From assembly GCA_021734995.1 (NCBI GenBank), contig JAIPHX010000004.1:18115-82114 (forward strand): a DNA stretch of 64,000 nucleotides, given 5' to 3'. The position numbers were made by a program, and so were the translations under genes. How positions within the stretch are numbered: position 1 is the first letter of the stretch; each line of letters starts with the position of its first letter. The DNA is from Minisyncoccota bacterium. Its GTDB lineage: Bacteria; Patescibacteriota; Minisyncoccia; Phycocordibacterales; UBA9973. The notes beneath the pieces are model-generated. The model worked only from the letters and a program-made list of their open reading frames with translations, did not search any database and was not told the DNA's origin. Below are positions 1 to 45,115 of the stretch, piece by piece.

Positions 1-733
1 ATATGATATTTTTTGCAGTAACAAGTCTTTTTTGACCTTGTCGTACTTCACTATTAAAATCTTTATCTATTGTATATAAACTTGGAAATTTTCCATTAGG
101 TAATGTAAAAGGATTCGCTGGATCGTAAATATAAGTTTTATCACCATCCTCTAATAGGATAAAGCTATGCGCCTCTGATTCTAGATTTTCTCCATCCTTA
201 TTCCAACACACTTCACCACTGAAATATCGTGATTGGATACTTTCATTCTGCAAATAAACCTGTGCTAATGCTGATATTTCTGCACATTCTGCACTGTTTA
301 ATCTAAATACATCACTTATTTTAATATCTTTTTCTTCGTATATTTTTTGACGAGAGTTTGCTCCTTGTGGATTATAAGGAAACTGTTCGTCATAGCTCCT
401 TGAAAAAGCAATGAGTTTTGCAAAAATTTCTGGGTTAATGTTTACCCCTTGTGCAACTAATTGTTTCTCAATTTTAATAAGATTATACCCTTCTGCAAGC
501 TTGCGAGTTTTAACAAAAAAATCTTTTAAGTTTTCAAAATCTGCAATTGCTGTCACGTTTACTTTTGCAGAAAACATACTTTCTCCTCCTACTGGGATAA
601 TATCATTTTCTGCTATTTCGCTAATTTCAAAACAATGATCAAAAATCATCTCAATATTTTGGTTTGAAGATGATTCTATTTTGGGCTTATTTACTTTAGA
701 TATACCTGATTTAAATTCTCCCATAGTGCTCAT
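1..733 (-). CDS. transglutaminase-like cysteine peptidase domain protein (N-terminal part; runs off window start)
   Basis: Minus-strand ORF starts at ATG 733 (MSTMGEFKSG...) and continues past position 1. Contains a Cys...His...Asp arrangement typical of transglutaminase-like cores (SAECAEISALAQVY ... EAHSFILLEDG ... YIYDPAN). Not in the ORF track because it is truncated by the window edge. Confidence 0.4.
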   Translation of the reverse strand, partial: MSTMGEFKSGISKVNKPKIESSSNQNIEMIFDHCFEISEIAENDIIPVGGESMFSAKVNVTAIADFENLKDFFVKTRKLAEGYNLIKIEKQLVAQGVNINPEIFAKLIAFSRSYDEQFPYNPQGANSRQKIYEEKDIKISDVFRLNSAECAEISALAQVYLQNESIQSRYFSGEVCWNKDGENLESEAHSFILLEDGDKTYIYDPANPFTLPNGKFPSLYTIDKDFNSEVRQGQKRLVTAKNII

Positions 734-1445: not shown

Positions 1446-2768
1446 ATGGAAACATATACAACAGCTAGGATTAATAAGGAAATCTTTGCACCAGTACAAA
1501 AGATAAGGTATGTACTGTATGCTCGTAAATCTACCGAATCAGAAGAACGACAAGTTCTTTCAATAGATAGCCAAATAAAAGAAATGCTTGAACTAGCAGA
1601 AAGAGAAAACTTAGAAATTGTAGAAATCAGGCGAGAATCTCATTCAGCTAAAGAATCAGGACAACGACCTGTGTATAAGGAAATATTAGAAGACATACGA
1701 CGAGGTAGATTCAACGGAATACTAACTTGGGCACCAGATAGGCTTTCAAGAAACGCAGGTGACTTAGGGAGTATCGTAGATTTAATGGACCAAAAGTTGT
1801 TATTAGAAATTCGTACCTACGGACAACATTTTAAGAACTCTCCAAATGAAAAGTTTCTATTAATGATTCTCTGTTCTCAAGCAAAACTTGAGAATGATAA
1901 CAAAAGTGTAAATGTTAAACGAGGATTAAGAACAAGAGTAGAGATGGGACTATGGCCTGCTCCTGCACCAACAGGATACCTTAAAGAGAAAAGGATGGAT
2001 AGGAAATGCGAGACATTAATTGACAGAGATAGAGCACCTACAATCAAGAAAATGTTTGAGAAAGTAGCCTATGAGCATTGGAGTGGAAGAAAGGTATATA
2101 ACTGGCTTCGATTTGATTTAAACTTCAGGACAGCTTATGGAAAGAAGCATCTTAGCCTAGGTAATATATACAAAATACTAGGAAATCATTTCTACTATGG
2201 AATCTTTGAATATCCAAGAAAAAGTGGCAATTGGTATACTGGTAAACATGAGTCACTTATTACCAAAGAACTATATGACCAGGTTCAAGTGCAAATACGA
2301 AGCCAAGTCCTTCGTGTAGAAAACAAGGAATTTGCTTTCACTAAAATGATGACTTGTGGATTATGTGGTTCTAGTATTACGGCTGATGAAAAGTTTAAAA
2401 AACAGAAAAATGGTAATGTTCACAGATATGTATATTATGGATGTACGAAGTCTCAAAAAGCTGATTGCAAATGTGGCTACACAGAAGAAAAGGATATTCT
2501 CAAACAATTTGAAGAGTTAATTGAAAAGATTAATATTAATGAAATTCAAATTAAAGAAAAAATTAAAGCTGATGTTGAAAAATTCACCAATTTACAAAAT
2601 TTCTTCTTGGGAATTAAAGAAAAACCTAAAATATCAAATATTGATATCCGAGGATATGCTAGATATGTACTAAAAGAAGGGAGTGATATTGAGAAAAGAG
2701 AATTGTTGGGGTGCCTGAGGGGAAAGATTGTTTTGAGTGATAAAAAGATATCTATTTTAATTTTATAA
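1446..2768 (+). CDS. large serine recombinase (resolvase/invertase catalytic domain + recombinase domain + zinc ribbon)
   Basis: N-terminal YVLYARKSTESEERQVLSIDSQ matches the serine-recombinase catalytic motif (nucleophilic Ser in the ARKST context). 440 aa with a C-terminal Cys cluster CGLCGSS...YYGCTKSQKADCKCG, as in large serine recombinases. Confidence 0.85.
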   Translation: METYTTARINKEIFAPVQKIRYVLYARKSTESEERQVLSIDSQIKEMLELAERENLEIVEIRRESHSAKESGQRPVYKEILEDIRRGRFNGILTWAPDRLSRNAGDLGSIVDLMDQKLLLEIRTYGQHFKNSPNEKFLLMILCSQAKLENDNKSVNVKRGLRTRVEMGLWPAPAPTGYLKEKRMDRKCETLIDRDRAPTIKKMFEKVAYEHWSGRKVYNWLRFDLNFRTAYGKKHLSLGNIYKILGNHFYYGIFEYPRKSGNWYTGKHESLITKELYDQVQVQIRSQVLRVENKEFAFTKMMTCGLCGSSITADEKFKKQKNGNVHRYVYYGCTKSQKADCKCGYTEEKDILKQFEELIEKININEIQIKEKIKADVEKFTNLQNFFLGIKEKPKISNIDIRGYARYVLKEGSDIEKRELLGCLRGKIVLSDKKISILIL

Positions 2769-2802
2769 TAGTTTGGTATCTGTTTATAAATAAGAATTCA
2801 AA

Positions 2803-3702
2803 TTATTTTCTTTCTTTTATAGAGGTAATTTTATTTCCATTATGCATACTTGAAATTTTTCCATCAGCACCGTATCTATAATCTACTGTATTTAAACCAA
2901 TTGCGGGTATATTAGTAATATTTCCACCTTCACTTGGAATTAAAGCACCTAATCCTTTATTTTCAGGCTTCATTGTTCGTTCTTGAAAATTTATAAGTTC
3001 ATTAAAATCAAATGATTCTTTTAATTTAAAGGCGTCATCTTTTCTTACTCTTAAAAAAATAAAAGGTCCATCAATCTGAGTATTATTTTTTACCAATTGA
3101 TAAGTTCTTTCGTCAATTTTCTTATACACTCCAATATCTATTGATTGAGCAATTGTTTTTCCAGTTTTTGAGTCTGTTGCACTAAAATCATCGAGCCATC
3201 CTGAACCTTTCTTTGAATCATAAAATACTATTACATCAGAAGGATCTCTTTCTTTCTTCTCTCCCTTGTCATCACCCAAATAATCTGGGTTGTCTAAAAT
3301 ATTTTTAGTTCTTTGAACTTGTCCATTTTCTAAAACCTTGTAAACAGAACCTCTTTCAGTCTCGAATGATTCAAATTTTAAAATGTTATTTAATTCTTTT
3401 TCTGGAGTTTTATTTTGTATTTCATAAACAGAAGTCAATGTTTGTACTACATATTTTCCGTTTTCTACTTTTATACTCTTTATGTTACTTGTATTTCCAC
3501 CATTATCAAACTCAATAGGAAAACCAATCCTAACATTATTTTTCAATTTTCCTTGTAGTATATATCCAACTTCTAAATCTGAATTACCACTACTTGATTG
3601 TTTTAATAGAGACAATTCTTCACCAGTTTTTAATTCAAGTTTCTGGATAATATTTTCACTCTCAATTTTTTCATTATTTTGTGGGGGTATATCAAAAGCC
3701 AT
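2803..3702 (-). CDS. hypothetical protein (possible cargo of the recombinase island)
   Basis: 299-aa ORF with no recognisable domain; sits between the recombinase and tRNA-Trp. Confidence 0.45.
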   Translation of the reverse strand: MAFDIPPQNNEKIESENIIQKLELKTGEELSLLKQSSSGNSDLEVGYILQGKLKNNVRIGFPIEFDNGGNTSNIKSIKVENGKYVVQTLTSVYEIQNKTPEKELNNILKFESFETERGSVYKVLENGQVQRTKNILDNPDYLGDDKGEKKERDPSDVIVFYDSKKGSGWLDDFSATDSKTGKTIAQSIDIGVYKKIDERTYQLVKNNTQIDGPFIFLRVRKDDAFKLKESFDFNELINFQERTMKPENKGLGALIPSEGGNITNIPAIGLNTVDYRYGADGKISSMHNGNKITSIKERK

Positions 3703-3793
3703 ATATTTATAATATCAAATTTTTTACTATTTTAATAGTATTATTTTTAGATATTAAATATTTGCAGACAACACATCTCGTGCTAGCTGTCAA

Positions 3794-3867
3794 TGGCGGG
3801 CGATGAGAGAATCGAACTCCCGATAACGGTTTTGGAGACCGTAGTTATGCCACTTAACTAATCGCCC
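3794..3867 (-). tRNA. tRNA-Trp (anticodon CCA)
   Basis: Reverse complement GGGCGATTAGTTAAGTGGCATAACTACGGTCTCCAAAACCGTTATCGGGAGTTCGATTCTCTCATCGCCCGCCA folds as a clean cloverleaf: acceptor GGGCGAT/ATCGCCC, D stem GTTA/TAAC, anticodon stem ACGGT/ACCGT with loop CTCCAAA (anticodon CCA), T arm GGGAG-TTCGATT-CTCTC, encoded CCA. Confidence 0.85.
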
Positions 3868-3986
3868 ATACAACACATTTATTATTCAACACAACATCAG
3901 TACATTATTTATCTACCTACAACACAATACGCATTTTTTTCTCCCCAAAAAAACAAAAACAATCCTGGATTTCTGCAAAACCCAAT

Positions 3987-4064
3987 AGGGCTCAAACAGG
4001 AATCGAACCTGCTCAGCCGGCATATATTTTCAAGCCGACCATTCTTCCGTTAAACTATAAGCCC
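3987..4064 (-). tRNA. tRNA-like element with an atypical anticodon arm (possible tRNA-Phe(GAA)-derived pseudogene or non-canonical tRNA)
   Basis: Reverse complement GGGCTTATAGTTTAACGGAAGAATGGTCGGCTTGAAAATATATGCCGGCTGAGCAGGTTCGATTCCTGTTTGAGCCC has a perfect 7-bp acceptor (GGGCTTA/TGAGCCC), U8-A9 and a canonical T arm (GCAGG-TTCGATT-CCTGT). The anticodon stem TCGGC/GCCGG encloses a 12-nt loop (TTGAAAATATAT) instead of 7, the D stem pairs poorly, there is one extra nt before the acceptor 3' strand, and no CCA is encoded. Confidence 0.4.
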
Positions 4065-4169
4065 GTGCTCCCCAGCTGGTAACTGAGGAGTCCTCAGACA
4101 GCTTTTTACTAGTAATCAAGCTTCTGATAGTAAAAAAGAACAACACGACGAACTTTCGCCGTATCGTTA

Positions 4170-4198
4170 ATTATAGCATATTTATATTTTTCAAACAA
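4170..4198 (-). promoter_or_regulatory. candidate sigma70-type promoter (TTGTTT-17-TATAAT) reading toward the tRNA-like element
   Basis: On the minus strand: TTGTTTgaaaaatataaatatgcTATAATtaacg, about 100 nt upstream of the tRNA-like 5' end and directly after the rpmG terminator. Confidence 0.35.
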
Positions 4199-4240
4199 AA
4201 AAATACCCTATAAAGCTTAATTTATAAGGGTATTTTTTAT
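4199..4240 (-). terminator. intrinsic terminator hairpin downstream of rpmG (palindromic, usable on either strand)
   Basis: AAATACCCTATAAAgcttaaTTTATAAGGGTATTT inverted repeat flanked by an A-run and a T-run, immediately after the rpmG stop codon. Confidence 0.5.
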
Positions 4241-4404
4241 TATTTCTTAACTTCTTTATGCTTTAAACTTTTTTTGCACCATTTGCAAAACTTTTTTAGT
4301 TCAAGCTTAGTGGTAACAGTTTTTTTGTTTTTACTTGACCAATAGTTAATCCTCTTGCAAGTACCGCAAGCAAGCTTTATTAGTCTATCTTGTGATTTAG
4401 CCAT
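4240..4404 (-). CDS. rpmG: 50S ribosomal protein L33 (Cys4 zinc-ribbon type)
   Basis: Hand translation of the minus strand gives MAKSQDRLIKLACGTCKRINYWSSKNKKTVTTKLELKKFCKWCKKSLKHKEVKK (54 aa). This has the L33 signature (KLELKKF, paired CxxC). Absent from the ORF track because it is under 60 aa. Confidence 0.8.
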   Translation of the reverse strand: MAKSQDRLIKLACGTCKRINYWSSKNKKTVTTKLELKKFCKWCKKSLKHKEVKK

Positions 4405-4458
4405 ATAGATAAAGAATAATACAATTTTAAAGAAAAAGCAAGAATTTTAAGTTTTACA

Positions 4459-12101: not shown

Positions 12102-12132
12102 TTTTTTTTAATAATGTAATATAATTTATGGC

Positions 12133-12393
12133 ATGGAGAATATAGAAGGACAAACTAGAAAACCAGCAGATTCTAAAAAAAGACAAAGAATCACATTGAA
12201 CGAACAAGACATCAGTGAAATAAAAGCGTTAGCTGGAACTAATTTAGATGAAAGCGATATTATTGCTACACTAGAAAATAATAACCCTTTAAACAGATTG
12301 GTTAGAGATGTAAATAACAAAATAACCACCTATTTAGGATGTGTAGATCAGATTGATTCTTCTAAAGAAAGAAAAAAAAAGTGTTTACATTAA
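12133..12393 (+). CDS. hypothetical small protein
   Basis: 86-aa ORF with no motif. Confidence 0.3.
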   Translation: MENIEGQTRKPADSKKRQRITLNEQDISEIKALAGTNLDESDIIATLENNNPLNRLVRDVNNKITTYLGCVDQIDSSKERKKKCLH

Positions 12394-12568
12394 ATATTTT
12401 ATTTCTAATCAATATTATATTTTTTTAGAAAAAGAATTAGAAAAAATATTCCAAAAAGCTGAAAAAGAAGGATACCAAGAAATATATATACATAGTATAA
12501 ACAAGGAAGAAGATGAGCTCCTATAAAAATCTGGATTTTTTGAAGTAGAGCAAACTTTTAAAGATGAA

Positions 12569-14641
12569 TTGAACAAAAAAACTAAATTATATGCTAAGAA
12601 ATTAGAAACTCTAGGTGAAAAAGTAGATCAATTAATAAAAGAATTAGAAAAAAATGCTAAGGAAGTAATTGAAAAATTAGACAAAAGGAAACTCAGGGAA
12701 TCATTAAAACATGCTCTCCAAATTAAATTTGATCCTAAAATAAATGAACTCTATGGTGCATTTGATACTCTTTTAACTGCTCAAGACCCTATTTTAGCAG
12801 AAAATTATAAAATTTCAGATATTTATAAAAAGGCAAAAAAAATTACTATTGAGAATAGAAAGCAAAACACGATATTAAATTACACAAATGCTTTAGTAAA
12901 AAAACTTAATCTAGAAATACATCAAGAAGAAATATTCCAGATATTGAAAAATAATCTATCTAAAGATTTTGATGATCAGTTAAAAAAATTCTTTAAAGAA
13001 AAACAGATTAAATATAACGAAGATATAAATTATAATAAAAATTATTTACACTCTTTATACCACAAGGAACCAATAAATCTAGGTATTTTTAAAATAGACG
13101 GTAAAAATATGTCTTTTTTTTCTTTGACATCACAAGAACATCTACAAGAAGAATCAAAAAAAATGGGACATTGCATAGGGGAAAGTGAATTCTATTTAAA
13201 AAAAATAATGAGTGGGCAAATAATGGCCATTTCTTTAAGAGATGAAGAAGGGCCACATTATACAATAGAATATGATATTAAAACAAAAACTATCATACAA
13301 TTTAAGGGTGGAAACGACACTCCTGTCAATTCGTTACCAAACAATAGAGCAATAGTCACAGACACACTTAATGCTTTATATAAAATGGGTTTTGATATTA
13401 AAAAGATGACTGAAAATTTTAGTTATTCTTTGTATAAAGATATAAAAGAAAATAAATTTTATACTTTAGACGAAGAAAATATCACCAATCTTATTTTGAA
13501 CGAAAATAAAAAATTTATTAAAGGTATTGTAGATCTGAACCAAAATACTACAGAAGAACAGTTAGAGTATCTTTGTTCTTCTGGATTAGATCTGAATATA
13601 GACAACTTACCAAAAGAAAAATATTATTTACTACAAAAAATAGAAGGGAGTATTGTTTATACTAAAATAGACCATCTACTTTTGCCAAATCTTGCTTCTG
13701 TGGGAGGTTACATTAATGCAGAAAAAGCTCAAAGTTTTAAAGCACCAAATCTTGCTTCTGTGGGAGGTGACATTAATGCAAGAAATACTCAAAGTTTTGA
13801 AGCACCAAATCTTGCTTCTGTGGGAGGTTACCTTTTTGCAGGAAGTACTCAAAGTTTTAAAGCACCAAATCTTGCTTCTGTGGGAGGTGACCTTTTTGCA
13901 AGAAAAGCTCAAAGTTTTGAAGCACCAAATCTTGCTTCTGTGGGAGGTGACCTTTTTGCAGAAAAAGCTCAAAGTTTTGAAGCACCAAATCTTGCTTCTG
14001 TGGGAGGTAGCCTTTATGCAAGAAATACTCAAAGTTTTGAAGCACCGAATCTTGCTTCTGTGGGAGGTGACCTTTTTGCAGAAAAAGCTCAAAGTTTTAA
14101 GGCACCAAATCTTGCTTCTGTGGGAGGTAGCCTTTATGCAGGAAGTACTCAAAGTTTTGAAGCACCAAATCTTGCTTCTGTGGGAGGTAGCCTTTATGCA
14201 GGAAGTACTCAAAGTTTTGAAGCACCGAATCTTGCTTCTGTGGGAGGTGACCTTTTTGCAGAAAAAGCTCAAAGTTTTGAAGCACCGAATCTTGCTTCTG
14301 TGGGAGGTAGCCTTTATGCAAGAAATACTCAAAGTTTTGAAGCACCGAATCTTGCTTCTGTGGGAGGTAGCCTTTTTGCAGGAAAAGCTCAAAGTTTTGA
14401 AGCACCGAATCTTGCTTCTGTGGGAGGTGACCTTTATGCAGGAAAAGCTCAAAGTTTTGAGGCACCAAATCTTACAAAAATAAAAATTTTAATCGTAAAT
14501 TTATCTATATTAAATAATTTTAATATTCCTGATAATTGTTCTATTGAGCACATTAACAACCAAGGAGAAGAAATTTATTATCCTTCTATCAAAGAAATTA
14601 AACAAATAATAGCTCAAAATAATTCAAAAACTAAAAAATAA
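12569..14641 (+). CDS. repeat protein: N-terminal domain (~370 aa) followed by 13 tandem 20-aa LRR-like repeats (PNLASVGGxLxAxxxQSFxA)
   Basis: 690-aa ORF. The C-terminal 260 aa are 13 nearly identical repeats with the aliphatic/Asn spacing of BspA/LRR_5-type repeats (F.APNL.SVGG.L.A…QSF). Confidence 0.7.
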   Translation: MNKKTKLYAKKLETLGEKVDQLIKELEKNAKEVIEKLDKRKLRESLKHALQIKFDPKINELYGAFDTLLTAQDPILAENYKISDIYKKAKKITIENRKQNTILNYTNALVKKLNLEIHQEEIFQILKNNLSKDFDDQLKKFFKEKQIKYNEDINYNKNYLHSLYHKEPINLGIFKIDGKNMSFFSLTSQEHLQEESKKMGHCIGESEFYLKKIMSGQIMAISLRDEEGPHYTIEYDIKTKTIIQFKGGNDTPVNSLPNNRAIVTDTLNALYKMGFDIKKMTENFSYSLYKDIKENKFYTLDEENITNLILNENKKFIKGIVDLNQNTTEEQLEYLCSSGLDLNIDNLPKEKYYLLQKIEGSIVYTKIDHLLLPNLASVGGYINAEKAQSFKAPNLASVGGDINARNTQSFEAPNLASVGGYLFAGSTQSFKAPNLASVGGDLFARKAQSFEAPNLASVGGDLFAEKAQSFEAPNLASVGGSLYARNTQSFEAPNLASVGGDLFAEKAQSFKAPNLASVGGSLYAGSTQSFEAPNLASVGGSLYAGSTQSFEAPNLASVGGDLFAEKAQSFEAPNLASVGGSLYARNTQSFEAPNLASVGGSLFAGKAQSFEAPNLASVGGDLYAGKAQSFEAPNLTKIKILIVNLSILNNFNIPDNCSIEHINNQGEEIYYPSIKEIKQIIAQNNSKTKK
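13685..14464 (+). repeat. 13 x 60-bp near-perfect tandem direct repeats (coding)
   Basis: The unit ccaaatcttgcttctgtgggaggt…caaagttttgaagca recurs at exact 60-nt spacing (13685, 13745, … 14405). Variation is confined to about six codon positions. Confidence 0.9.
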
Positions 14642-14820: not shown

Positions 14821-14847
14821 GAACCCCGCATAGTGGGTTCTTTTTTT
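14821..14847 (+). promoter_or_regulatory. terminator-like hairpin + U-run in the pyrC leader (possible attenuator)
   Basis: GAACCCcgcatagtGGGTTC followed by TTTTTTT, ending 14 nt before the likely pyrC ATG (14861). A candidate promoter TTGCCA-16-TATCAT lies about 120 nt upstream (~14676-14705). Confidence 0.4.
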
Positions 14848-25709: not shown

Positions 25710-26339
25710 TTAATTAATATTATCTTTTATGTATAGATCAGTTATTTTCTGTATTTCTTTTTTTATATCTTTCCAATCTGTTTTTATAATATAAATCGGC
25801 TCCACATCATCTTCTGCATCATTAAAATATACAAGACTTTTTAAAATGTACATAAGATTATATCCATAGCTAGCATATTTTTCTTTAAAAAAATTCAATA
25901 TATCTTGAATAGAATATCTTTTTAAAAGAAAATATAAATCTACAAAGTCTTTCTTGCTTCCTCTGTTTGATATAGCTAGTATTTTCATGGCAGAGATATC
26001 GCGTTCGTCAGCTATTTTTAGTCCTTCAAAATCTTTTTTCTCAAACAATAAATTTACAGGTGTTTTAAAAAAACTAATTTTCACACCATCTAGACTTCCA
26101 TTAAAAGTATCTTCTTTTGTTTCCTCAATTTCAAGCTTACCAAGTAATTTCAAACTTTGAATTAATCTTTCGGTTTCAAATTCTTTATTTGTGAAAAAAT
26201 CTAAATCAATGGATATCCTATGACCTAATTGCAAAGAAAGTCCTGTCCCACCAGCAAGACAAAAATCAAATACTGTTACTGTATTCTTTAACAAATGAAA
26301 AACCTTATTTGTTTTTTCATCTAAAGTTTCAATATACAT
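25710..26339 (-). CDS. nucleotidyltransferase, AbiEii/AbiGii toxin family-like
   Basis: N-terminal FCLAGGTGLSLQLGHRISIDLDFF matches the AbiEii/DUF1814 GGTAL…HR.S.DLD signature. Confidence 0.6.
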   Translation of the reverse strand: MYIETLDEKTNKVFHLLKNTVTVFDFCLAGGTGLSLQLGHRISIDLDFFTNKEFETERLIQSLKLLGKLEIEETKEDTFNGSLDGVKISFFKTPVNLLFEKKDFEGLKIADERDISAMKILAISNRGSKKDFVDLYFLLKRYSIQDILNFFKEKYASYGYNLMYILKSLVYFNDAEDDVEPIYIIKTDWKDIKKEIQKITDLYIKDNIN

Positions 26340-27681: not shown

Positions 27682-30402
27682 TTGTTTTTATGTCTTTTTG
27701 CATATCATGTTAGAATGTTTCTAATGAACAAGATGTACAAAAATTCAAATGATTTAAGAATGCCCCCTCAGAGTATTGCTTCTGAGCAAGCAGTCCTTGG
27801 ATCAATAATGCTTCGCAAAGATGCGCTACTTGATATTGAAGATGTAGTTAATGCAGATTCTTTCTATGCTCCAAAACACAAAATAATATTCCAATCAATG
27901 CTTGATCTTTCTTTAAAAAATGAACCAATTGATCTTTTGTCTGTTGCAAACAAATTAGCTGAACAAAAAAACATAGAGAGTGTCGGGGGAAACCAATACC
28001 TTGCGGAGTTGGCTAATAGTGTTCCATCTTCTGCCAACATTAGACACTATGCCGAAATCGTTCAAAAAAAATATATTTTAAGATCTTTAATAGAAGCATC
28101 CAACCATATCTCTGAAATTGCTTTTGAGGAAAATGATAGCAACCTAGATGAAGTATTGGACGAAGCAGAGAAAAAAATTTTTGGCATAGTGAACTCTCCT
28201 AAAAATCAAAAATATGTCAATCTAAAAGATGCTCTGCCTGAAGCTTTTGAAAGAATAGAAAAACTTAGTGAACACAAGGGAGGTCTTAGAGGAATACCTA
28301 CTGGATTTAAAGATTTAGACAATACTCTTTCTGGATTACAAAATTCAGATTTAATCATTCTAGCAGCTCGTCCTTCTGTTGGTAAAACTACCCTTGCCCT
28401 AGACATGGCTCGTATGTCTGCTATTGGACACAAAAAAGCAGTGGGTATATTTTCTTTGGAAATGTCTGCTCAACAACTCATAGACAGAATGCTCTCTGCT
28501 GAATCCAAAGTAGATGCTTGGAAAATTCGCACCGGTAAAGGTCTACATATAGAGCATGATTTTGGTAGAATCCGAGATGCTATGCAAAGACTTTCTGAAG
28601 CAAAAATATTCATAGATGATCAAGCAGGTAATTCTATCACCAAAATGAAAGCTGTAGCTAGACGTTGGAAAGCAGAAAAAGGATTAGATTTTATAATAGT
28701 GGACTATTTACAACTTATGACTACTTCTAAAAACTACGACTCTATGGTCAATCAAGTCACTGAAATTTCTCGTTCTTTGAAAGCTTTAGCCAAAGAATTA
28801 GACGTACCTGTACTTGCTCTTTCTCAGCTAAACAGAGCAGTAGAATCTCGTGGAGGGAAACCTAGACTTTCAGACTTGAGAGATTCGGGCTGTGTCACAG
28901 GTGATACTTTGATTCAAAGAGCCGATACAGGAGAAAGAATTCCGATTAAAGAATTGGTGGGACAACAAAATATACCTGTTATCTCTCTAAGTGGAGAATA
29001 TGAGTTACGACCAATGCTTGCTTCAAAATTTTTCTCTAATGGAAAAAAAGAAATTTTTGAATTAAAAATGCGTAGCGGTAAAACAATCAAAGCATCTGCA
29101 AACCATAAATTTTATACAATGGACGGGTGGCAAAGACTTGATGCACTAGACGAAAGTGACAGGATTGCGACCCCTCGTTTTATCCAAGCGACTTCTCCAA
29201 TATCCAACCTTTGTAAAGAAGAATTAATCTTACTTGCTCATCTGCTTGGAGATGGATGTGTACTACCTAGACAACCAATTCATTACACAAGCGCAGATGA
29301 AAAAAACATAAAAGCAGTAGAAGATGCTTCTGAAAAATTATTTGGCATCAAAGCCAGAAGAATTCGTCAAAAAAATTGGTGGCATACATATTTACCTTCT
29401 CCTTATCGTCTAACCAAAAACAAACATCACCCCATAACAGATTGGTACACAGAACTAGGAATTCAAGCAGTGCGTTCTTATGAGAAAAAAATTCCTAAAG
29501 CAGTCTTCGCTTCAGACAGTATGTCTATCCAGCTTTTCTTGCATCATCTTTGGGCTACTGATGGCAATATTTCTAGAAAAATTTTGGCAGGTAGGAAAAC
29601 ATCTGCTTCTATATACTATGCTACTTCTAGTAAAGAATTAGCAAAGGGTGTACAACATTTACTTTTACGCCTAGGAATTTGGAGCAATATCAGAGAAGTG
29701 ACACAAGGCAAATATCGTCCCATGTTTAATGTCTATGTGCAAAGTACTCCAATGCAAAAAAAGTTTTTAGATTTAGTAGGATCTTATGGTTCCAGAGGAA
29801 AAATTGTTTCCCAATTAAAAAAAGCATTAGAAGCTATTGCTCCTATCCCAAATACAGACACAATTCCAAAAGAAGTTTGGCAACTTTTTGTTGCTCCTGA
29901 AAAAGAAAAAGCAAACATGAGCTGGAGAGATGTTTCAGAAAATTTAAATATCTCTTACAATGGTAGTGCTTTAGTCACTAGAGGAGTCTCCAGAGAACGA
30001 TTAGCTAAAGTTGCTACCGTGTTGCAAAGCAAAAGCCTAGTTCACTTAGCTGAATCAGATATATATTGGGATGAAATCACATCTATCACTCCTCTTGGCA
30101 AAGAAGAAGTCTTTGATGCTACTGTTCCAGGAGCCCATAATTTTGTAGCTGAAGATATTATTATTCATAACAGTATAGAACAAGATGCTGATGTGGTGAT
30201 GTTTATCCACCGTGAAGATAAAGGTAAAGATGAATCTGAAAAGACTAATATCGCAGAAATTCTAATAGAAAAACACCGAAATGGTCCTACAGGAAAAGTA
30301 GAATTGTATTTTGATGAAAAAACTACTACTTTCCTAAACTTAGATAAAAGTAGTATCAATGAATTTTCAGCAACACAAATAAGTAATTTAGATGAATTTT
30401 AA
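27682..30402 (+). CDS. dnaB: replicative DNA helicase DnaB, interrupted by an intein
   Basis: The N-terminal DnaB domain, Walker A (ARPSVGKTT), Walker B (IIVDYLQLM) and the C-terminal FIHRED…EILIEKHRNGPTG are separated by a 427-aa insert. The true start is probably an internal Met (MNKMYK… at ~27724). Confidence 0.9.
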   Translation: MFLCLFAYHVRMFLMNKMYKNSNDLRMPPQSIASEQAVLGSIMLRKDALLDIEDVVNADSFYAPKHKIIFQSMLDLSLKNEPIDLLSVANKLAEQKNIESVGGNQYLAELANSVPSSANIRHYAEIVQKKYILRSLIEASNHISEIAFEENDSNLDEVLDEAEKKIFGIVNSPKNQKYVNLKDALPEAFERIEKLSEHKGGLRGIPTGFKDLDNTLSGLQNSDLIILAARPSVGKTTLALDMARMSAIGHKKAVGIFSLEMSAQQLIDRMLSAESKVDAWKIRTGKGLHIEHDFGRIRDAMQRLSEAKIFIDDQAGNSITKMKAVARRWKAEKGLDFIIVDYLQLMTTSKNYDSMVNQVTEISRSLKALAKELDVPVLALSQLNRAVESRGGKPRLSDLRDSGCVTGDTLIQRADTGERIPIKELVGQQNIPVISLSGEYELRPMLASKFFSNGKKEIFELKMRSGKTIKASANHKFYTMDGWQRLDALDESDRIATPRFIQATSPISNLCKEELILLAHLLGDGCVLPRQPIHYTSADEKNIKAVEDASEKLFGIKARRIRQKNWWHTYLPSPYRLTKNKHHPITDWYTELGIQAVRSYEKKIPKAVFASDSMSIQLFLHHLWATDGNISRKILAGRKTSASIYYATSSKELAKGVQHLLLRLGIWSNIREVTQGKYRPMFNVYVQSTPMQKKFLDLVGSYGSRGKIVSQLKKALEAIAPIPNTDTIPKEVWQLFVAPEKEKANMSWRDVSENLNISYNGSALVTRGVSRERLAKVATVLQSKSLVHLAESDIYWDEITSITPLGKEEVFDATVPGAHNFVAEDIIIHNSIEQDADVVMFIHREDKGKDESEKTNIAEILIEKHRNGPTGKVELYFDEKTTTFLNLDKSSINEFSATQISNLDEF
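28891..30171 (+). mobile_element. intein with LAGLIDADG homing-endonuclease domain inside dnaB
   Basis: Begins with Cys (RDSG|CVTGDTL), contains LAGLIDADG-like LLAHLLGDGC and a second block, and ends …IIHN|S (His-Asn followed by an extein Ser). It is in-frame, 1281 nt, located after Walker B at the common DnaB insertion site. Confidence 0.8.
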
Positions 30403-36286: not shown

Positions 36287-37732
36287 CTATATCATCGGCT
36301 CAACCTCTTGTGTAGCACTTACAGATTTAGAATTCCCTTCTATCATTGACTTTTCTTCAGCGCTACGAATAATAGTAGCTTCTTCTTCAGCGATAAGATT
36401 TGCAGCACTTTCTTTTGAAATAGTATATTTTCTACGAGAAGCTTCTTCTATTTCTTTTCTATATGAAGGATGAGTTGGCGGTAAAATTCGTAAAGTCTCA
36501 GCAGAAAATGGGTCATAAGATTCACCATCTATGGTCATCTTAATATAAAATTCAGTTACTGCTAGATTAATCATATCTTTCACATCAAAGATAGGAGAGA
36601 ACTCAGGTTTCATTTTTACAGCATCTTCACCACCAATACGAAAAGAAATAATACTTCCACAATTACCCAATACTGCTTGATGCACTTTTGGAATAATTTG
36701 ACCGACATATTGATGCGCCATTGTAAGATTCAATCCGTATTTGCGAGCCTCTGAAAGAATGTTTTCAAATGTTTGAGTGACCACATTTTGAAACTCATCC
36801 ACATATATATAAAAATCTTTACGATCTTTTTCAAGCATACTTGCTCTTTCCATACCTGCTTGCTTAATCTTTGTCAAAAAAATAGATCCTAAGAAAGAGG
36901 AATTTTCTTCTCCGAGTCTTCCTTTAGAAAGATTGATCAATATAATCTTTTCTTTATTCATAAGCTCACTAATATCCACCTTATTTTCTTTCTGTCCAAA
37001 GATATTACGCAACAATGGATCTGAAAGGAATTGCCCAAGTTTATTGACCAAAGGAATAATAGCGTCAGTATCAAACTTTTCAGACCAATCGGCAAATTCA
37101 ATAGCGAAGAATCTTTTGACCATATCATCTTTGATATATTCAATTACTTTCTGTCTATAATTTCTATCAGTCAACATTGAGATCATTCCACGCATTGTCG
37201 CATAAGGGTAATCCAATAAAGCTAGACAAGTAAAACGAAAAACGTGTTCTAGGCGAGGAGTCCAATTGGCACCGAATTGTTTTTGAAAAACTTCAATCAA
37301 TCCTTGCGTAAGTTGGAACTTAAACATAGGATCTACATTTTGCAAAGGATTAAACGAGATTGGAAAATTAATATCTGTAGGATCAATAATACATACATCT
37401 TCAATACGTTCTTTTGGAATAAAATCAAGCATTGCATCTATCACATCTCCATGTGGATCTATAAGACAAAGCCCATGGTTATAAGAGATATCTTGCCTTA
37501 AAAATAATTCCATGAGTTTTGTTTTTCCTACTCCAGATTTACCAATAATATACAGATGCCTACGGCGATCTATTCTCTTTATACCAAAAATAAATTTCTT
37601 TTCTTCTAAAGAAGCAACGTAATTTGTGCGTCCAATGAAAGACACCTCCTCAGGTTCTACTTTCCCAAAAATAGGAAGTTCTGGTGGTGGTGGTGCGTAT
37701 TTTATTATCTGTACTCTATTTCCTTTTGGCAT
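36287..37732 (-). CDS. FtsK/HerA-superfamily P-loop ATPase (DUF87/HerA-like; T4SS-coupling-protein-like)
   Basis: Walker A IIGKSGVGKT followed by the HerA-type CLIDPHGD motif; Walker B YIYVDEFQ. Paralogue of the next gene. Confidence 0.55.
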   Translation of the reverse strand: MPKGNRVQIIKYAPPPPELPIFGKVEPEEVSFIGRTNYVASLEEKKFIFGIKRIDRRRHLYIIGKSGVGKTKLMELFLRQDISYNHGLCLIDPHGDVIDAMLDFIPKERIEDVCIIDPTDINFPISFNPLQNVDPMFKFQLTQGLIEVFQKQFGANWTPRLEHVFRFTCLALLDYPYATMRGMISMLTDRNYRQKVIEYIKDDMVKRFFAIEFADWSEKFDTDAIIPLVNKLGQFLSDPLLRNIFGQKENKVDISELMNKEKIILINLSKGRLGEENSSFLGSIFLTKIKQAGMERASMLEKDRKDFYIYVDEFQNVVTQTFENILSEARKYGLNLTMAHQYVGQIIPKVHQAVLGNCGSIISFRIGGEDAVKMKPEFSPIFDVKDMINLAVTEFYIKMTIDGESYDPFSAETLRILPPTHPSYRKEIEEASRRKYTISKESAANLIAEEEATIIRSAEEKSMIEGNSKSVSATQEVEPMI

Positions 37733-37763
37733 ATATTAATATTCTAACATTTAAGTGATACAT

Positions 37764-40061
37764 TTATCCTAAAATTTTTCGCAAGACATCTTCAGGTACT
37801 TCTTTTGTTTTATTTTTCAGATCTTCTTGTTTCTTTTTACTGTCATATTCTTCGTTTTCGTCTTCTTGTTTCTTTTGATCATCATTTACCTGTTTTTCAT
37901 CTTCTTCTGTATTTTGATTATCAATTATCTCATCTTTTTTATTTTCTTGTTTAACTTCAGAATCTTCTAGAGGTCTTTCCCTTTCTGGAACTTTTGATAT
38001 TTCAGGCATTTCTATTTCGCGCACTATTCCAGAAAATACTGGAGTTTGTTCTTTTACATCTTCTTCTTTTTTTATCTCATTGACTTCTTTTGTTACAATT
38101 TTTTCAGTTATTTCTTTTGTTTCATCTATATCACTTATTTCCTCAAACTTTCCAATAAAATCTTTAAGCTTATTCATTTCTTCTAATGAAGCAGATTTAT
38201 CATTTTTAGGTGGTTTATTTTCTGTTTTTGATTTCAATATGTCTAAAGAAGCAGGAGGTTCTACCGGCTCACTTACCACTTCTTTTATTTCTTCTTTAGC
38301 TTTTATTTCTTCTGTTTTATTATTTAAAGTCTTATTTAAAATATCTTTTAAAGCACTTGTATCTCTTTCTTTTTCATTTTTATTTTTATTTTTTGAAAAA
38401 ACATTTTTGATTCCAGAAAATATTTTTGGTCTACCTGAACTTTTGTTATTATTACTTTCCCTCGAATCCTTAGAAGGTTCTTTGCTTTGTTCATTACTCT
38501 CTTCTTGTGCAAACTCTATTCCTAGATCCATTAATGGTTTATAAAACTTAGTAGGCTTGTAGTTTGACACAGACTCACCTTTCACTGGCTTCATTTCTCC
38601 TGCTTTTATTTTAGTAATACAATCTTTACAATACACAGGTCTTCCTTTTTCTGGTTTAAAAGGAACTTTTGTCGCATTTCCACAAGAAGAACACTCTACA
38701 TCAAATTTTTCAAAATTATTATTACCAGGATTTCCGTTTTCATCCAGAATAGACATTCCACTCCAATTATTTATTTCTTTTTCTACCTCTTCCTTTGTTT
38801 TACAATATAATTCACGAGACATTTTTATCACTTCCGTTTCTATTTCCTGATTACCAGATTTTACCAATTGAGGCATTGTTTTTGCAGAAAATGGACGCGA
38901 TGTAACTCCGTCAATCATAAGCTTCATATATACTTTATAATTCGGTAAATTAACAATATCCTCTGGAGTAAATTCTGGTTCAAATTCTTTTTCCAAAAAA
39001 TCAGCATCATCTGCTCCTACTCTAAACACAATCATTGTTCCAATGTTTCCAAAGATAGCATCACGAACAGAAGAGCTTTCTTTGGTAACAAGCTGAGCAG
39101 TGTATTGGTGAGCAACTGTAAGATTTAGGCGGTATTTTCTAGCTTCAGAAAGAATACCTGCAAAAGCATCTGTAACGAAATTTTGAAATTCGTCCACGTA
39201 AAGATAGAAATCTTTACGTTCATCTTCTGGGATACGTACTCTTTCCATCGCAGCAAGCTGAATTTTAGTAATAATCATACCTCCAAGAAGAGCTGAGTTG
39301 TCTTCTCCAATTCTTCCTTTTGAAACGTTTACCAAAAATATTTTTCCTTCATTCATCATATCAAAAATATTGATAGTACTTTTAGACTGACCCACAATAT
39401 TTCTAATAATAGAAGTAGATAAAAATTGCCCTACTTTGTTTTGAATAGGAGCGATAGCTTCGTTTCTAAATTTATCTTGCCATTCTTCGTATTCATGTAT
39501 CCAAAAAGCTTTAATGACAGGATCTTTCAAATTGGTGATTATTTTTTGTCTATAATCTTTGTCTACCAACATTCTAGGGATACCAAGAAGAGTAGTTCCA
39601 GGAGTATCTAGTAAAGCCAAAATAGCATTATTTAAAATATATTCCATTCTGGCACTCCAAGCATTTGCCCATATTTTTGTAAATATTCCCATCAAACCAG
39701 AAGCTACTAAATGCTTATACTTAGGATCTATTAATTCCAGCACATTAAAACCTATATGATATTCTGTATCAGCAGGATTAAAATATATTACATCTTTTAA
39801 TCTATGAGGTGGTATAGCAGAAAGGACACCTTCCACATTCTCTCCATGAGGATCCACAAGACATACACCATCTCCATTCTGGATGTTTTGAATAATCATA
39901 TTGAACATTAGAGCAGATTTACCAGTACCAGATTTTCCAAGAATATATACATGCTGACGTCTGTCTCTACGCTTTATACCAAAGAGTTTATTTTGGTCAC
40001 GAAAACTGGCTAAGCCAAGATATGTAAGGTCTCTATTACGTGGTAAGTCTGATAAATCCAT
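37764..40061 (-). CDS. FtsK/HerA-superfamily P-loop ATPase with C-terminal CxxC…CxxC zinc ribbon and ~330-aa K/E-rich low-complexity tail
   Basis: Walker A ILGKSGTGKS, CLVDPHGE, Walker B LYVDEFQ. Then CSSCGNATKVPFKPEKGRPVYCKDC, then a long lysine/glutamate-rich tail (…KEEIKEVVSEPVEPP…EDENEEYDSKKKQEDLKNK…). Confidence 0.55.
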   Translation of the reverse strand: MDLSDLPRNRDLTYLGLASFRDQNKLFGIKRRDRRQHVYILGKSGTGKSALMFNMIIQNIQNGDGVCLVDPHGENVEGVLSAIPPHRLKDVIYFNPADTEYHIGFNVLELIDPKYKHLVASGLMGIFTKIWANAWSARMEYILNNAILALLDTPGTTLLGIPRMLVDKDYRQKIITNLKDPVIKAFWIHEYEEWQDKFRNEAIAPIQNKVGQFLSTSIIRNIVGQSKSTINIFDMMNEGKIFLVNVSKGRIGEDNSALLGGMIITKIQLAAMERVRIPEDERKDFYLYVDEFQNFVTDAFAGILSEARKYRLNLTVAHQYTAQLVTKESSSVRDAIFGNIGTMIVFRVGADDADFLEKEFEPEFTPEDIVNLPNYKVYMKLMIDGVTSRPFSAKTMPQLVKSGNQEIETEVIKMSRELYCKTKEEVEKEINNWSGMSILDENGNPGNNNFEKFDVECSSCGNATKVPFKPEKGRPVYCKDCITKIKAGEMKPVKGESVSNYKPTKFYKPLMDLGIEFAQEESNEQSKEPSKDSRESNNNKSSGRPKIFSGIKNVFSKNKNKNEKERDTSALKDILNKTLNNKTEEIKAKEEIKEVVSEPVEPPASLDILKSKTENKPPKNDKSASLEEMNKLKDFIGKFEEISDIDETKEITEKIVTKEVNEIKKEEDVKEQTPVFSGIVREIEMPEISKVPERERPLEDSEVKQENKKDEIIDNQNTEEDEKQVNDDQKKQEDENEEYDSKKKQEDLKNKTKEVPEDVLRKILG

Positions 40062-42693: not shown

Positions 42694-43379
42694 AGATACA
42701 TAGATTTATCGGGGATTACAATTTGAATAAAGATTTCATTACTATTACTGATCTATCTCAAGTAAAGCAAATTAAAAATGTTTTAAAGTTAAATATTAAT
42801 GAACACATTTTTTTATCGGATGGGATGGGAAAAGAAATTGAAGCAGAAATTCAAAATATTCAAAAAGAACAAATTATGGTAAAAAAAGTAGTGGAAATTA
42901 TTACAGAAAAAGAAAATAAAAAAGTGAACTTGTATCTTGCTATCTTAAAGAAAGAAAACTTTGAATTAGCCGTCCAAAAAGCAGTAGAATGTGGCGTGTC
43001 AGAAATCACACCAATTTTAACAAAAAGAACAATAAAGACAGGTATCAAGAAAGATAGGCTTGAAAAAATAATCAAAGAGGCATGTGAACAATCTGGAAGA
43101 AATATTATTCCAAAAATAAATGAAATTACAACTTTTGAAAATGCATTACAAGAAGGACAAAAAAACGATCGTAAGGTGATTTTTCATTTTTCCAAAGAAG
43201 AATACTCAAATATCCCTGATATCAAAAGCATCGCTATATTTATAGGGCCAGAAGGTGGTTTTACTGATACTGAAATATCATTTGCAAGAGAACAAAAATA
43301 TGAAATTTGCTCTTTAGGTGACCATACACTACGAGCTGAGACTGCTTGTATTGTAGGGAGTTATCTTGCTTGCCACTAA
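42690..43379 (+). CDS. rsmE: 16S rRNA (uracil1498-N3)-methyltransferase RsmE
   Basis: PUA-like N-terminus and SPOUT C-terminus with IFIGPEGGFT; 229 aa; HRF at the N-terminus. Confidence 0.7.
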   Translation: MKIHRFIGDYNLNKDFITITDLSQVKQIKNVLKLNINEHIFLSDGMGKEIEAEIQNIQKEQIMVKKVVEIITEKENKKVNLYLAILKKENFELAVQKAVECGVSEITPILTKRTIKTGIKKDRLEKIIKEACEQSGRNIIPKINEITTFENALQEGQKNDRKVIFHFSKEEYSNIPDIKSIAIFIGPEGGFTDTEISFAREQKYEICSLGDHTLRAETACIVGSYLACH

Positions 43380-45115
43380 TACACCTCTTTATTATAACAC
43401 CCCTCACAATACACTATCTCTGGTCTATCTGGAGCATATGAGGTTTCGAATTCATTTGAGCACTCTTTTGTTCCGTTTGTATGCATATGTGCTTCTTTAT
43501 CACACATACAAGAGCGGTGCCAGAGTTTCATTGGGTTTCTTTTTGATAGTCTTTCGTAGTGTCTACAATTGGGACAGGTGTTTGGAACAGGAATTTTATT
43601 TTTTTTATAAAAAGACAACTCACTCTCTGTAAGTTTAAAAGCTTCAGTACATTTATGTTCACACTTACCTAAGTGTGAACAACCTATAATATTATTTAAT
43701 ATAGTATCATCAACATCTTTAATATTATCTGGTATACCTTGTGAAGGCAAATCTATCCTATAGTTCCTCTCTTCATCATCTTTCCATTTAAAACAAAGAT
43801 CTAGGGCAATATTTTTATTCAAAGGAAAAAATTCTTGAGCAGTTGATTCATTGTACGAAAAAGGAGACAGATCATATGGAAAGAATTCTCCATATTTATA
43901 TATTCTATTTTTTTTATCAATATATGGATTAGAATTCATTTCTTCTTTAATCTTTTCAATTAAAATTTGGTATTCCTCTTTTGTGTATTGTTTATTTAAA
44001 ATACAATATGACTTTTTTTGCAGAGAAATACAACCAAAAAGAAAAGAAGACCCTTTACACATTTCTGAATATTCTACATTGTTTGAGGTATCTACCACAT
44101 GCACAAACTTTGTATTTGATACTTCTTCAGGGCTCATCGCTTCATATACATATTGACTATTACCCATACCATAACAATCGTATATTTCTTTTGAGGAAAA
44201 AACCCATGCAGAGTATCTACTATTCTCTAGATCAAAACCATCAAATACCATTTTCGAATTTTTAGTATTTACTAGATTATCTCCTGTAGAATTTTGACAA
44301 CTTACTAAGTTTCCGTATTTATGTATAGATTGTTTTTTAATATTATCAAAAAGTTTTTTATACTCATCAATAATCTTTTTTGAACCTAAATCAATTTCCT
44401 TTAATCTTTCGAGATAAGCATCTTTTGAAAGATTTTCTCCCATAAACGTATATGAACTATTTCTTTTATTTATAATTCCAAAACAATTAGAGATATTTCT
44501 AGAGTTTGAAACAAAATAAGAATCAATCAATGCTTCAGATTTTTCTGAATAAAATGTATTATATGATTTTTCAACATTAAAAGCTTCGTATAAATTCTCT
44601 GAATAATGAGAATAAACTACGTCCATACATTTTTTTAAATTAACTGCTCTAGCTACATACATACAATCTTCTGAATCTCTAAACCCGTAAGAAAGATAGC
44701 AATTTTTGTTATTGTATGATTGGTTGGTATATGGCGAATTTGTACATTGTACAGTCCAAATACCCAATCTGGGTACTTTTAGTTGTAATTCTCTAAATAA
44801 TTCGAAAAAAGATTTTAAATTATCATATTCAATTCCAAAATCTATTGGATCCCAATTATCGCTATACCAACAATCTCTACAATATATCGTATAACATGAA
44901 TCTTTGGGGTACAAAGAAATGAAAGATTTTTTACATAAATCACAATCTCTTTTATACAAAGACCTTTCATTTCTCCACATAAATCTCCTCTGCATCCTAC
45001 ACTCCGGACAAAAAGTAGGTGGTGGTACCTTGATTTTTTGATAGAAAAGAAAGTCTTCTGACTCTATCATAAAGTCATTTTTGCAATTTTGACAGTTTTT
45101 AGTTTCTGGTGGCAT
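43376..45115 (-). CDS. Cys-rich paralogue family protein 1 (N- and C-terminal zinc-ribbon motifs, duplicated Cys-repeat core)
   Basis: N-terminal CQNCKNDFMIESEDFLFYQKIKVPPPTFCPECR and C-terminal LCPNCRHYERLSKRNPMKLWHRSCMCD…EIVYCEGCYNKEVY; about 30 Cys. Member of a six-gene family in this window. Confidence 0.6.
   Translation of the reverse strand: MPPETKNCQNCKNDFMIESEDFLFYQKIKVPPPTFCPECRMQRRFMWRNERSLYKRDCDLCKKSFISLYPKDSCYTIYCRDCWYSDNWDPIDFGIEYDNLKSFFELFRELQLKVPRLGIWTVQCTNSPYTNQSYNNKNCYLSYGFRDSEDCMYVARAVNLKKCMDVVYSHYSENLYEAFNVEKSYNTFYSEKSEALIDSYFVSNSRNISNCFGIINKRNSSYTFMGENLSKDAYLERLKEIDLGSKKIIDEYKKLFDNIKKQSIHKYGNLVSCQNSTGDNLVNTKNSKMVFDGFDLENSRYSAWVFSSKEIYDCYGMGNSQYVYEAMSPEEVSNTKFVHVVDTSNNVEYSEMCKGSSFLFGCISLQKKSYCILNKQYTKEEYQILIEKIKEEMNSNPYIDKKNRIYKYGEFFPYDLSPFSYNESTAQEFFPLNKNIALDLCFKWKDDEERNYRIDLPSQGIPDNIKDVDDTILNNIIGCSHLGKCEHKCTEAFKLTESELSFYKKNKIPVPNTCPNCRHYERLSKRNPMKLWHRSCMCDKEAHMHTNGTKECSNEFETSYAPDRPEIVYCEGCYNKEVY

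Follow-up and report, generated by a model that had tools for sequence, protein, structure and literature searches.

A PcfJ-domain protein of a Minisyncoccota bacterium with a predicted LRR-like solenoid of near-identical repeats that vary at a few fixed positions

Introduction

In the bacterial IpaH and SspH proteins, a leucine-rich repeat (LRR) domain that recognizes the substrate is coupled to a Cys-dependent catalytic domain. A related principle is found at the xxLxLxx positions of plant nucleotide-binding LRR receptors (NLRs) and in the lamprey variable lymphocyte receptors (VLRs), where recombining arrays keep a fixed scaffold and place diversity at alternating, outward-facing strand residues. 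Bacteria of the candidate phyla radiation (CPR) are believed to be attached to other cells or to depend on them, and the majority of their proteins lack annotation. Here, we describe a gene from a Minisyncoccota bacterium (contig JAIPHX010000004.1) whose 690-residue product combines a PcfJ-family domain with 13 near-identical tandem repeats of 20 residues that are predicted to form an LRR-like β-solenoid. All coordinates refer to the 64-kb stretch of this contig that was analyzed, termed the window. Hypervariable LRR-like solenoids are thus familiar in principle; what is new here is an uncurated repeat family fused to a PcfJ domain of unknown function.

PcfJ is widespread and was first named on a conjugative plasmid, and we know of no function described for PcfJ of the Enterococcus plasmid pCF10. 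The nearest structural relative of the repeats is FlrP, a β-solenoid LRR protein (PDB 8z5u) that braces the rod of the Vibrio polar flagellum and is a small, Sec-secreted, positively charged structural brace (bioRxiv 10.64898/2025.12.04.692373). Diversity-generating retroelements (DGRs) have been described in CPR genomes, and one DGR survey (PMC5758913) includes CPR targets in which a 'PcfJ-like' domain precedes the variable region.

Results

The repeat array

The array occupies positions 13685–14464 of the forward strand and consists of 13 in-frame tandem units, each of 60 bp and 20 residues, with the motif PNLASVGG-x-[LI]-x-A-x-x-x-QSF-x-A; a degenerate 14th unit (14465–14524) follows directly. 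Tandem Repeats Finder reported a period of 60 with 13.1 copies, 90% matches and a score of 1173 at 13685–14473, as well as a weaker higher-order period of 180 bp over the same array. Together with in-frame slicing, this bears out the 13 near-identical 60-bp repeats that had been noticed in the sequence (hereafter, the original prediction). The mean DNA identity between unit pairs is 90%; units 8 and 9 are identical, and units 5–6 are similar to units 10–11. Long open reading frames (ORFs) in other frames of the array (13676–14452 on the minus strand and 13692–14483 on the plus strand) are by-products of the repetition. The longest exact repeat within the array is 81 bp, which can be resolved with 150-bp reads or with k > 81, and the array is therefore not an obvious assembly artefact.

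Within the unit, 47 of the 60 DNA columns are invariant, and 10 of the 13 variable ones lie inside a single 19-nt stretch (scan-statistic P = 0.005). Codon 9 is GAC, AGC or TAC; codon 10, CTT or ATT; codon 11, TTT, TAT or AAT; codon 13, GAA, AGA or GGA; codon 14, AAA, AAT or AGT; and codon 15, GCT or ACT, while codon 19 encodes E or K. These codons match exactly those listed in the original prediction, to which two silent sites can be added, namely codon 1 (CCA/CCG) and the third position of codon 19 (A/G). The changes at codons 10 and 15 are conservative only, and the hypervariable codons are 9, 11, 13 and 14 (unit offsets +24..26, +30..32 and +36..41). Their alphabets are small (D/S/Y, F/Y/N, E/R/G and K/N/S, respectively), with a predominance of aromatic and charged residues (Y, F, R and D).

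The predicted solenoid and its structural relatives

An AlphaFold2 (AF2) run with a 27-sequence alignment predicted the solenoid that had been proposed, with a mean predicted local distance difference test (pLDDT) score of 87.6 over the whole protein and of 94–97 through the repeats. In the model, one turn corresponds to one unit of 20 residues and contains three short strands (unit positions 5–6, 10–11 and 17–19), and the array as a whole is predicted to be a 13-turn LRR-like β-solenoid. The predicted model thus shows the structural hallmarks of an LRR protein, that is, tandem units of 20–30 residues, each making one solenoid turn, and a parallel β-sheet. Residues L3, V6, G7–G8, L10, A12, F18 and A20 would form the core and the turns. 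The in/out alternation of the segment G-G-x-L-x-A-x, together with the hydrophobicity patterns of the repeat family described below, argues for exposure of the variable residues: positions 9, 11 and 13 are expected to face outward on the same side, and position 14 to lie at the next corner. The hypervariable triad would accordingly flank the conserved and probably inward-facing L10 and A12.

The solved structures closest to the solenoid, at low root-mean-square deviation, are FlrP, TpLRR and the BspA-type LRRs, and FlrP was the only PDB match by sequence (E = 1e-3). The top Foldseek matches were 20-residue bacterial LRRs, namely YopM (PDB 4ow2, E = 7.7e-4), SspH2, SspH1 and IpaH, with low TM-scores of 0.19–0.30. 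At the sequence level, the LRR signature LxxLxLxx(N/C)xL was not recovered, the repeat consensus contains no Asn/Cys ladder, and no Pfam LRR_1/4/5/8 model matched the window protein at E ≤ 1. Likewise, neither the repeat of about 23 residues that marks the BspA/TpLRR subfamily (LxxIxIPxxVxxIGxxAFxxC) nor a match to PF13306 was found. The original prediction of a BspA/LRR_5-type β-solenoid therefore stands as a resemblance of fold and motif, seen in the AF2 model and its FlrP, TpLRR and BspA neighbors, but not as formal LRR_5 membership.

Comparison with these relatives revealed both common and distinct features. Unlike FlrP, the window protein lacks a signal peptide, its array is acidic, it is fused to PcfJ and its repeats are near-identical. 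The TpLRR/BspA LRRs (LRR_5; PDB 6mlx, 4fs7 and 4fdw) differ in having a period of 23 rather than 20, whereas the window repeats have a turn formed by Gly-Gly and conserve neither Cys nor Asn; from motif mapping, the most variable window positions would lie on the strand after the Gly-Gly turn and not on the 'LxxLxL' strand. The Receptor L domain (PF01030; EGFR, insulin receptor) shares an 'L..[IV].G.L.[IL]' motif and a single-stranded right-handed β-helix, but the window protein has no PF01030 match, no Cys-rich regions and no extracellular context.

With the hypervariable LRRs of plant NLRs and lamprey VLRs, the array has in common a conserved scaffold that carries diversity at alternating outward strand residues. 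Those receptors are, however, eukaryotic, and VLRs are assembled somatically from cassettes, whereas the window diversity is germline, lies between the tandem units of one gene and is of a far smaller scale. IpaH, SspH and YopM are, like the window array, 20-residue bacterial LRRs and offer the best analogy for a possible mode of action. The domain order is nevertheless reversed in the window protein, PcfJ with its predicted GNAT-like fold takes the place of the novel E3 ligase (NEL) domain, there is no sequence homology, and no secretion signal or system is known for the protein.

Gene organization and the PcfJ head

The ORF spans 12569–14641 on the plus strand (TTG start; stop codon at 14639–14641) and encodes 690 residues, identical to an NCBI protein (P0001) entitled 'MAG: PcfJ domain-containing protein [Candidatus Pacebacteria bacterium]'. 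The gene and its surroundings comprise the following parts:

12130–12378, plus strand: first part of an N-terminal module remnant (tblastn with the N-termini of P0002, P0020 and P0047; E 1e-12 to 8e-18)
12353–12568, plus strand: second part of the N-terminal module remnant, in the frame of the 690-residue ORF (tblastn)
12372–12380, plus strand: A9 homopolymer run at which the frame shifts relative to intact homologs (read from the sequence)
12893–13318, plus strand: Pfam PcfJ (PF14284) match, residues 109–250 (E = 3.7e-11; 43.5 bits against a cutoff of 25)
13064–13468, plus strand: α/β core of the PcfJ domain, residues 166–300 (predicted GNAT-like fold, conserved residues)
13469–13684, plus strand: linker and N-terminal solenoid cap, residues 301–372 (conserved in alignment A3)
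13685–14464, plus strand: 13 tandem repeats (Tandem Repeats Finder, slicing, AF2)
14465–14638, plus strand: degenerate 14th unit, C-terminal cap strands and terminal helix, residues 633–690 (AF2; the tail aligns with that of P0002)
14825–14847, plus strand: terminator-like hairpin followed by a T-run, 3′ of the gene (consensus scan only)

The PcfJ domain, the decayed module upstream and the absence of a signal peptide had all been overlooked in the original prediction. The PcfJ core pattern E...HC.G...Y...S.R...T.E...Q is kept in the window protein. In alignment A3, E195, C202 and T232 are invariant, while H201, Y209, S222, R224, E234 and Q244 are at least 90% conserved; in alignment A5, all nine residues are at least 90% conserved. 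Such a set of conserved polar residues suggests a predicted enzyme, with His-Cys, Glu, Tyr, Ser-x-Arg, Thr-x-Glu and Gln as the candidate active site. The AF2 model suggests a GNAT-like fold for the domain, in which the segment Q244-F-K-G-G-N (Q-F-K-G-G-G in some homologs) follows the strand that precedes helix 259–272. This position recalls the acyl-CoA motif A of GNATs (Q/R-x-x-G-x-G/A at the β4–α3 junction), a similarity that is suggestive only. The model thus raises the possibility that the PcfJ head is a modifying enzyme of GNAT type, and it provides PcfJ with a fold assignment that can be tested. A literature search on PcfJ function returned nothing relevant. With PcfJ of pCF10, the window protein shares the conserved residues and a score above the PF14284 threshold; the namesake is plasmid-borne, whereas the window gene is chromosomal, lies among housekeeping genes and carries the repeat array.

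The first part of the N-terminal remnant lies in the frame of ORF 12133–12393, which differs from that of the 690-residue ORF, and judging from the sequence a ±1 change in the A9 run would join the two homologous frames. The run may represent a genuine lesion, an error in sequencing or a switch that is prone to slippage. The second part is broken by an in-frame TAA at 12524–12526, where tblastn aligned '...NKEEDELL(stop)KSGFF...' to 'NRFLTSRFGF' of homologs, and the 690-residue ORF restarts at a TTG just past this stop. Several homologs (e.g. P0009) are naturally without the N-terminal module, so the truncated protein may still work. A by-eye reading of the upstream module as GNAT-like found no support in a profile search against PDB sequences.

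No Sec-type signal or transmembrane segment was detected in the 690-residue protein (maximum 19-residue Kyte–Doolittle hydropathy, 1.13), and the N-termini of intact homologs are hydrophilic. The array is acidic, with an isoelectric point (pI) of 4.7 and 20 D+E residues vs 14 K+R. Neither NCBIfam nor any Pfam repeat model matched the window protein; Pfam matches to CdAMP_rec, STAT_int and ApoC-I were below threshold and were dismissed as spurious. The sole PHROGs match was weak (phrog_8470, a family of unknown function). The cap that precedes the array carries the motif D-x-T...K..I..V.G.L.D.S....Y..L.

A wider family with the same variable positions

An exhaustive HMMER search identified 1770 cluster representatives at E ≤ 1e-3, with family members in CPR bacteria, phages and mobile elements. 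HMMER was used after a word-indexed full-protein homology search had given only two proteins, probably because low-complexity words saturated the candidates. No Pfam or NCBIfam model covers this repeat family. An iterated repeat profile collected 1131 units from 140 proteins, from which the family consensus P-x-L-x-[ST]-[VI]-G-G-x-L-x-[LAFVI]-x-x-x-x-x-[LF]-x-[LA] was derived. Positions 3, 6, 10 and 12 are conserved as hydrophobic across the family, while positions 9, 11, 13 and 14 are polar and variable. Arrays with 60–82% internal protein identity are common.

The variation observed in the window recurs throughout this family. Across 58 other arrays, the mismatch between unit pairs was 0.74, 0.73, 0.79 and 0.57 at positions 9, 11, 13 and 14, respectively, and at most 0.48 at every other position. 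At the DNA level, columns 25/26, 31/32 and 37/38 vary in three other young arrays, one from a genome of Magasanikbacteria, one from a GC-rich mobile element that encodes a MuF-type polyvalent protein and one from a phage. The claim that variation is confined to particular positions is therefore upheld beyond the locus on which it was based, and random variation in additional copies, which would have spoken against it, was not seen in the 58 arrays. Taken together, the locus defines a large family of 20-residue solenoid repeats with a fixed scaffold and three or four hypervariable positions.

The cap and array are also combined with different partners. Among 86 relatives, PcfJ (PF14284) was found in 34 and the Receptor L domain (PF01030) in 15, and the cap-plus-array is further fused to other, unrelated N-terminal domains; in P0010, hhalign identified the same cap and repeats behind a different N-terminal domain. 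A 'GTGWC' domain in P0006, P0008 and P0010 was considered as a PcfJ variant and rejected, as hhalign aligned only the cap and repeats and Pfam returned nothing. At locus L007 (10001–14329), family repeats occur in a 1442-residue MuF_C (polyvalent-type) protein beside a gene for more than 3400 residues and an integrase, and at L008 (10001–11569) they occur in the genome of a phage that also carries genes for terminase, major capsid and ERF proteins. That the module is joined to different N-terminal domains and turns up both in a MuF-type polyvalent protein and in a phage would be in keeping with a part in conflicts between genomes. At L004, two adjacent genes (109–1929 and 2059–4437) both end in 63-bp (21-residue) arrays of the same family and are for this reason read as tandem paralogs.

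In the protein of L003 (6001–8169; P0011), as well as in P0016, P0045, P0051, P0082 and P0095, W stands at the conserved G of the relatives (FKWWWD vs FKGGGD). Since L003 translates correctly only with UGA read as Gly, the W-for-G members are assigned to code-25 lineages of the Gracilibacteria/Absconditabacteria type. A metagenome scan with the PcfJ region of the window protein recovered no close relatives, and one with the tighter alignment A7 recovered a single locus, L005, a third sample of the P0002 organism. A scan of viral contigs gave no matches, and a scan of GTDB gave one locus, L002.

Evolution of the array

In the window array, codons 9–15 have a replacement divergence (pN) of 0.285 and a synonymous divergence (pS) of 0, whereas the other 13 codons have a pN of 0.013 and a pS of 0.082. 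The pN/pS ratio of 0.16 in these 13 codons indicates purifying selection on the scaffold. The pN of the patch is 3.5 times the pS of the other codons, an excess that suggests diversifying selection, with the reservation that the units are few and non-independent. All four gametes were found at 46 of the 78 site pairs among the array units, which means that the variable sites have either been exchanged between units or been mutated repeatedly.

The expected expansion and contraction were seen in arrays of the family, between near-identical genes that differ by whole units. For the P0002 organism, 4 units were counted in each of two independent samples (L001 and L005) and 7 in a GTDB metagenome-assembled genome (L002); in the aligned array region, these differ by a clean 180-bp indel plus three point differences near the 3′ end only. 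Similarly, Magasanikbacteria proteins of 932, 912 and 792 residues are 100% identical over aligned positions, and P0152 differs from P0011 in length by exactly 20 residues. These findings fit a young array that evolves by duplication, deletion and exchange of units, through unequal recombination or gene conversion.

Discussion

We propose, with a probability of roughly 60%, that the protein is a two-module one in which the variable solenoid stripe targets an enzyme-like PcfJ head. The head would be a putative enzyme, a PcfJ-family domain with a predicted GNAT acyltransferase fold, and the tail a 13-turn LRR-like solenoid of 20 residues per turn in which positions 9, 11, 13 and 14 line up as a long stripe of variable side chains. 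The stripe residues (Y, S, D, N, F, K, R, E and G), at the second strand and the following turn, are expected to point outward and most likely bind a partner, probably a protein, which would set the target of the head. Duplication, deletion and exchange of units would keep the scaffold DNA near-identical, while the binding positions would stay different or be selected to differ. Such a protein may act in the interaction with host, phage or rival cells. The closest functional analogy would be the LRR-plus-catalytic-domain logic of IpaH and SspH, while the closest structural relatives are FlrP and TpLRR. If this reading is correct, then proteins of the type 'enzyme plus recognition rail', rapidly retargetable, would take part in interactions between genomes. 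The near-idealized repeats may also interest protein engineers as a natural consensus-repeat scaffold.

Several observations weigh against this proposal. The N-terminal module of many homologs is broken here by a frameshift and a stop, and the 690-residue ORF has no start other than a TTG; the locus may therefore be in decay. No conserved neighboring genes were found among the homolog loci inspected, and PADLOC gave no match for the window protein or three relatives; the genomic context consequently gives no functional clue. In the code-25 homolog L003, pN at the variable positions (0.27) is below the pS of the other codons (0.40), so relaxed constraint can explain the pattern in some lineages at least. 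Finally, the copy-number differences come from short-read metagenome assemblies, although a collapse of repeats is not forced, as the internal exact repeats are only 68–81 bp.

The L003 ratios lend weight to neutral drift, in which the variable codons would be the least-constrained surface positions of a spacer or scaffold solenoid with no specific ligand, and the units would be homogenized by concerted evolution. Positions 9 and 14 indeed lie in or beside turns, where N, D, G and S are structurally favored, and FlrP, the nearest solved relative, is a structural brace in the flagellar motor. In the window array, however, replacement change in the patch exceeds synonymous change elsewhere, and the patch itself holds no synonymous change at all. 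In addition, positions 2, 4, 16 and 17 vary freely across the family yet are invariant in this array, which shows that unconstrained sites do not all share in the variation, and the dominance of aromatic and charged residues at the variable positions likewise speaks against drift. We therefore regard drift as unlikely, though to be taken seriously. The disrupted N-terminal module, with its A9-run frameshift and in-frame TAA, the weak TTG start and the origin of the sequence in a metagenome-assembled genome would also fit a decaying pseudogene or an assembly artefact with no current function. This is decidedly unlikely given an open frame of 2.07 kb that includes 780 bp of repeats free of stops, the purifying selection on the scaffold codons, the retention of all conserved PcfJ residues, the existence of homologs naturally without the module and an array that, with an internal exact repeat of at most 81 bp, can be assembled. 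The original prediction had also likened the repeats to a code, in which the variable residues of every repeat would recognize a single element of a periodic ligand such as a nucleic acid, a glycan or an extended peptide. Transcription activator-like effector (TALE) repeats, with their repeat-variable di-residues (RVDs), and Pumilio/PUF repeats are likewise near-identical and differ at a few fixed positions, and the small alphabet at each variable position, the semi-independent assortment of positions (the four-gamete result above) and the family-wide use of the same three or four positions would suit such a code. TALE and PUF repeats are, however, α-helical, 33–36 residues long and read one nucleotide each, whereas the window array is a predicted β-solenoid of 20 residues per turn, and its acidity is unfavorable for nucleic acids. 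The closest structures (FlrP, TpLRR and the YopM/IpaH LRRs) are protein-binding LRR-type proteins, and nothing pointed to a polymeric ligand read unit by unit. The few recurring residue combinations come in blocks consistent with duplication (units 5–6 and 10–11; units 8 and 9) and are better explained by recent unit duplication plus reshuffling, so the analogy with a code did not hold up and such a reading is very unlikely.

The base composition of the variable sites raised the further alternative that a DGR or a similar system directs adenine mutagenesis to the array. All 13 variable columns carry an adenine allele and none is C/T (nine are A/G, three A/T and one A/C, with column 25 triallelic for A, G and T), compared with an A allele in 46–84% of the variable columns of seven other arrays. 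Moreover, every variant can be derived by A-only changes from one hypothetical template unit with AAC at codon 9 and AAT at codon 11. The CPR DGR targets with a PcfJ-like N-terminus resemble the window protein in joining such a head to a diversified C-terminal region, but there the retroelement acts on a single variable region, whereas the window diversity lies between tandem units (PMC5758913). No copy of a template repeat was found elsewhere in the 64 kb (best chance matches ≤21 bp), and no reverse-transcriptase Pfam match was obtained in the window ORFs of at least 150 residues that were scanned (about 40 of the 42 outside the spurious frames of the array), nor was a reverse transcriptase found within ±10 kb of six homologs. 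The pairing of a nearby reverse transcriptase with a template repeat that characterizes DGR targets was thus not found in the 64 kb and the ORFs scanned. Furthermore, 11 adenine columns of the unit never vary, among them columns in codons 2, 16 and 17, at which family members differ freely. In 12 of the 13 variable columns, only one non-A allele occurs and many units share it, a sign of descent and not of separate mutagenic events. An A/G bias is in any case expected when polar residues encoded by NAN and NGN codons interchange, and such codon structure accounts for much of the adenine pattern. Targeted mutagenesis by a DGR or similar system is hence highly improbable. It would likewise be a long shot that the array is the substrate of an active adenine-directed diversification by a trans-acting DGR-like retroelement or another targeted mutator; if it were, the PcfJ-solenoid proteins would amount to a programmable CPR recognition system that directs a GNAT-like head at changing host or phage targets.

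Other features of the window

The genes around the ORF are housekeeping genes, with an M1 aminopeptidase upstream and pyrC, carA, carB and pyrB downstream, and the ORF is considered a stand-alone gene since its homologs occupy unrelated contexts. Elsewhere in the window, a large serine recombinase gene (1446–2768) lies near a tRNA-Trp gene (3794–3867) and an AbiEii-type toxin gene lies at 25710–26339; the two are possible traces of mobile or toxin–antitoxin elements. At 27682–30402, a DnaB helicase gene is split by an intein with a LAGLIDADG homing-endonuclease domain. Two adjacent genes on the minus strand (36287–40061) encode VirD4/TraG/TrwB-like coupling ATPases, one of them with a treble-clef zinc finger. 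Six ORFs of about 555–580 residues follow on the minus strand between 43376 and 56370 (43376–45115, 45150–46892, 48578–50305, 51228–52925, 52946–54688 and 54703–56370); apart from a terminal treble-clef zinc finger in one ORF, they are free of Pfam domains, and they may form a cluster of tandem paralogs.

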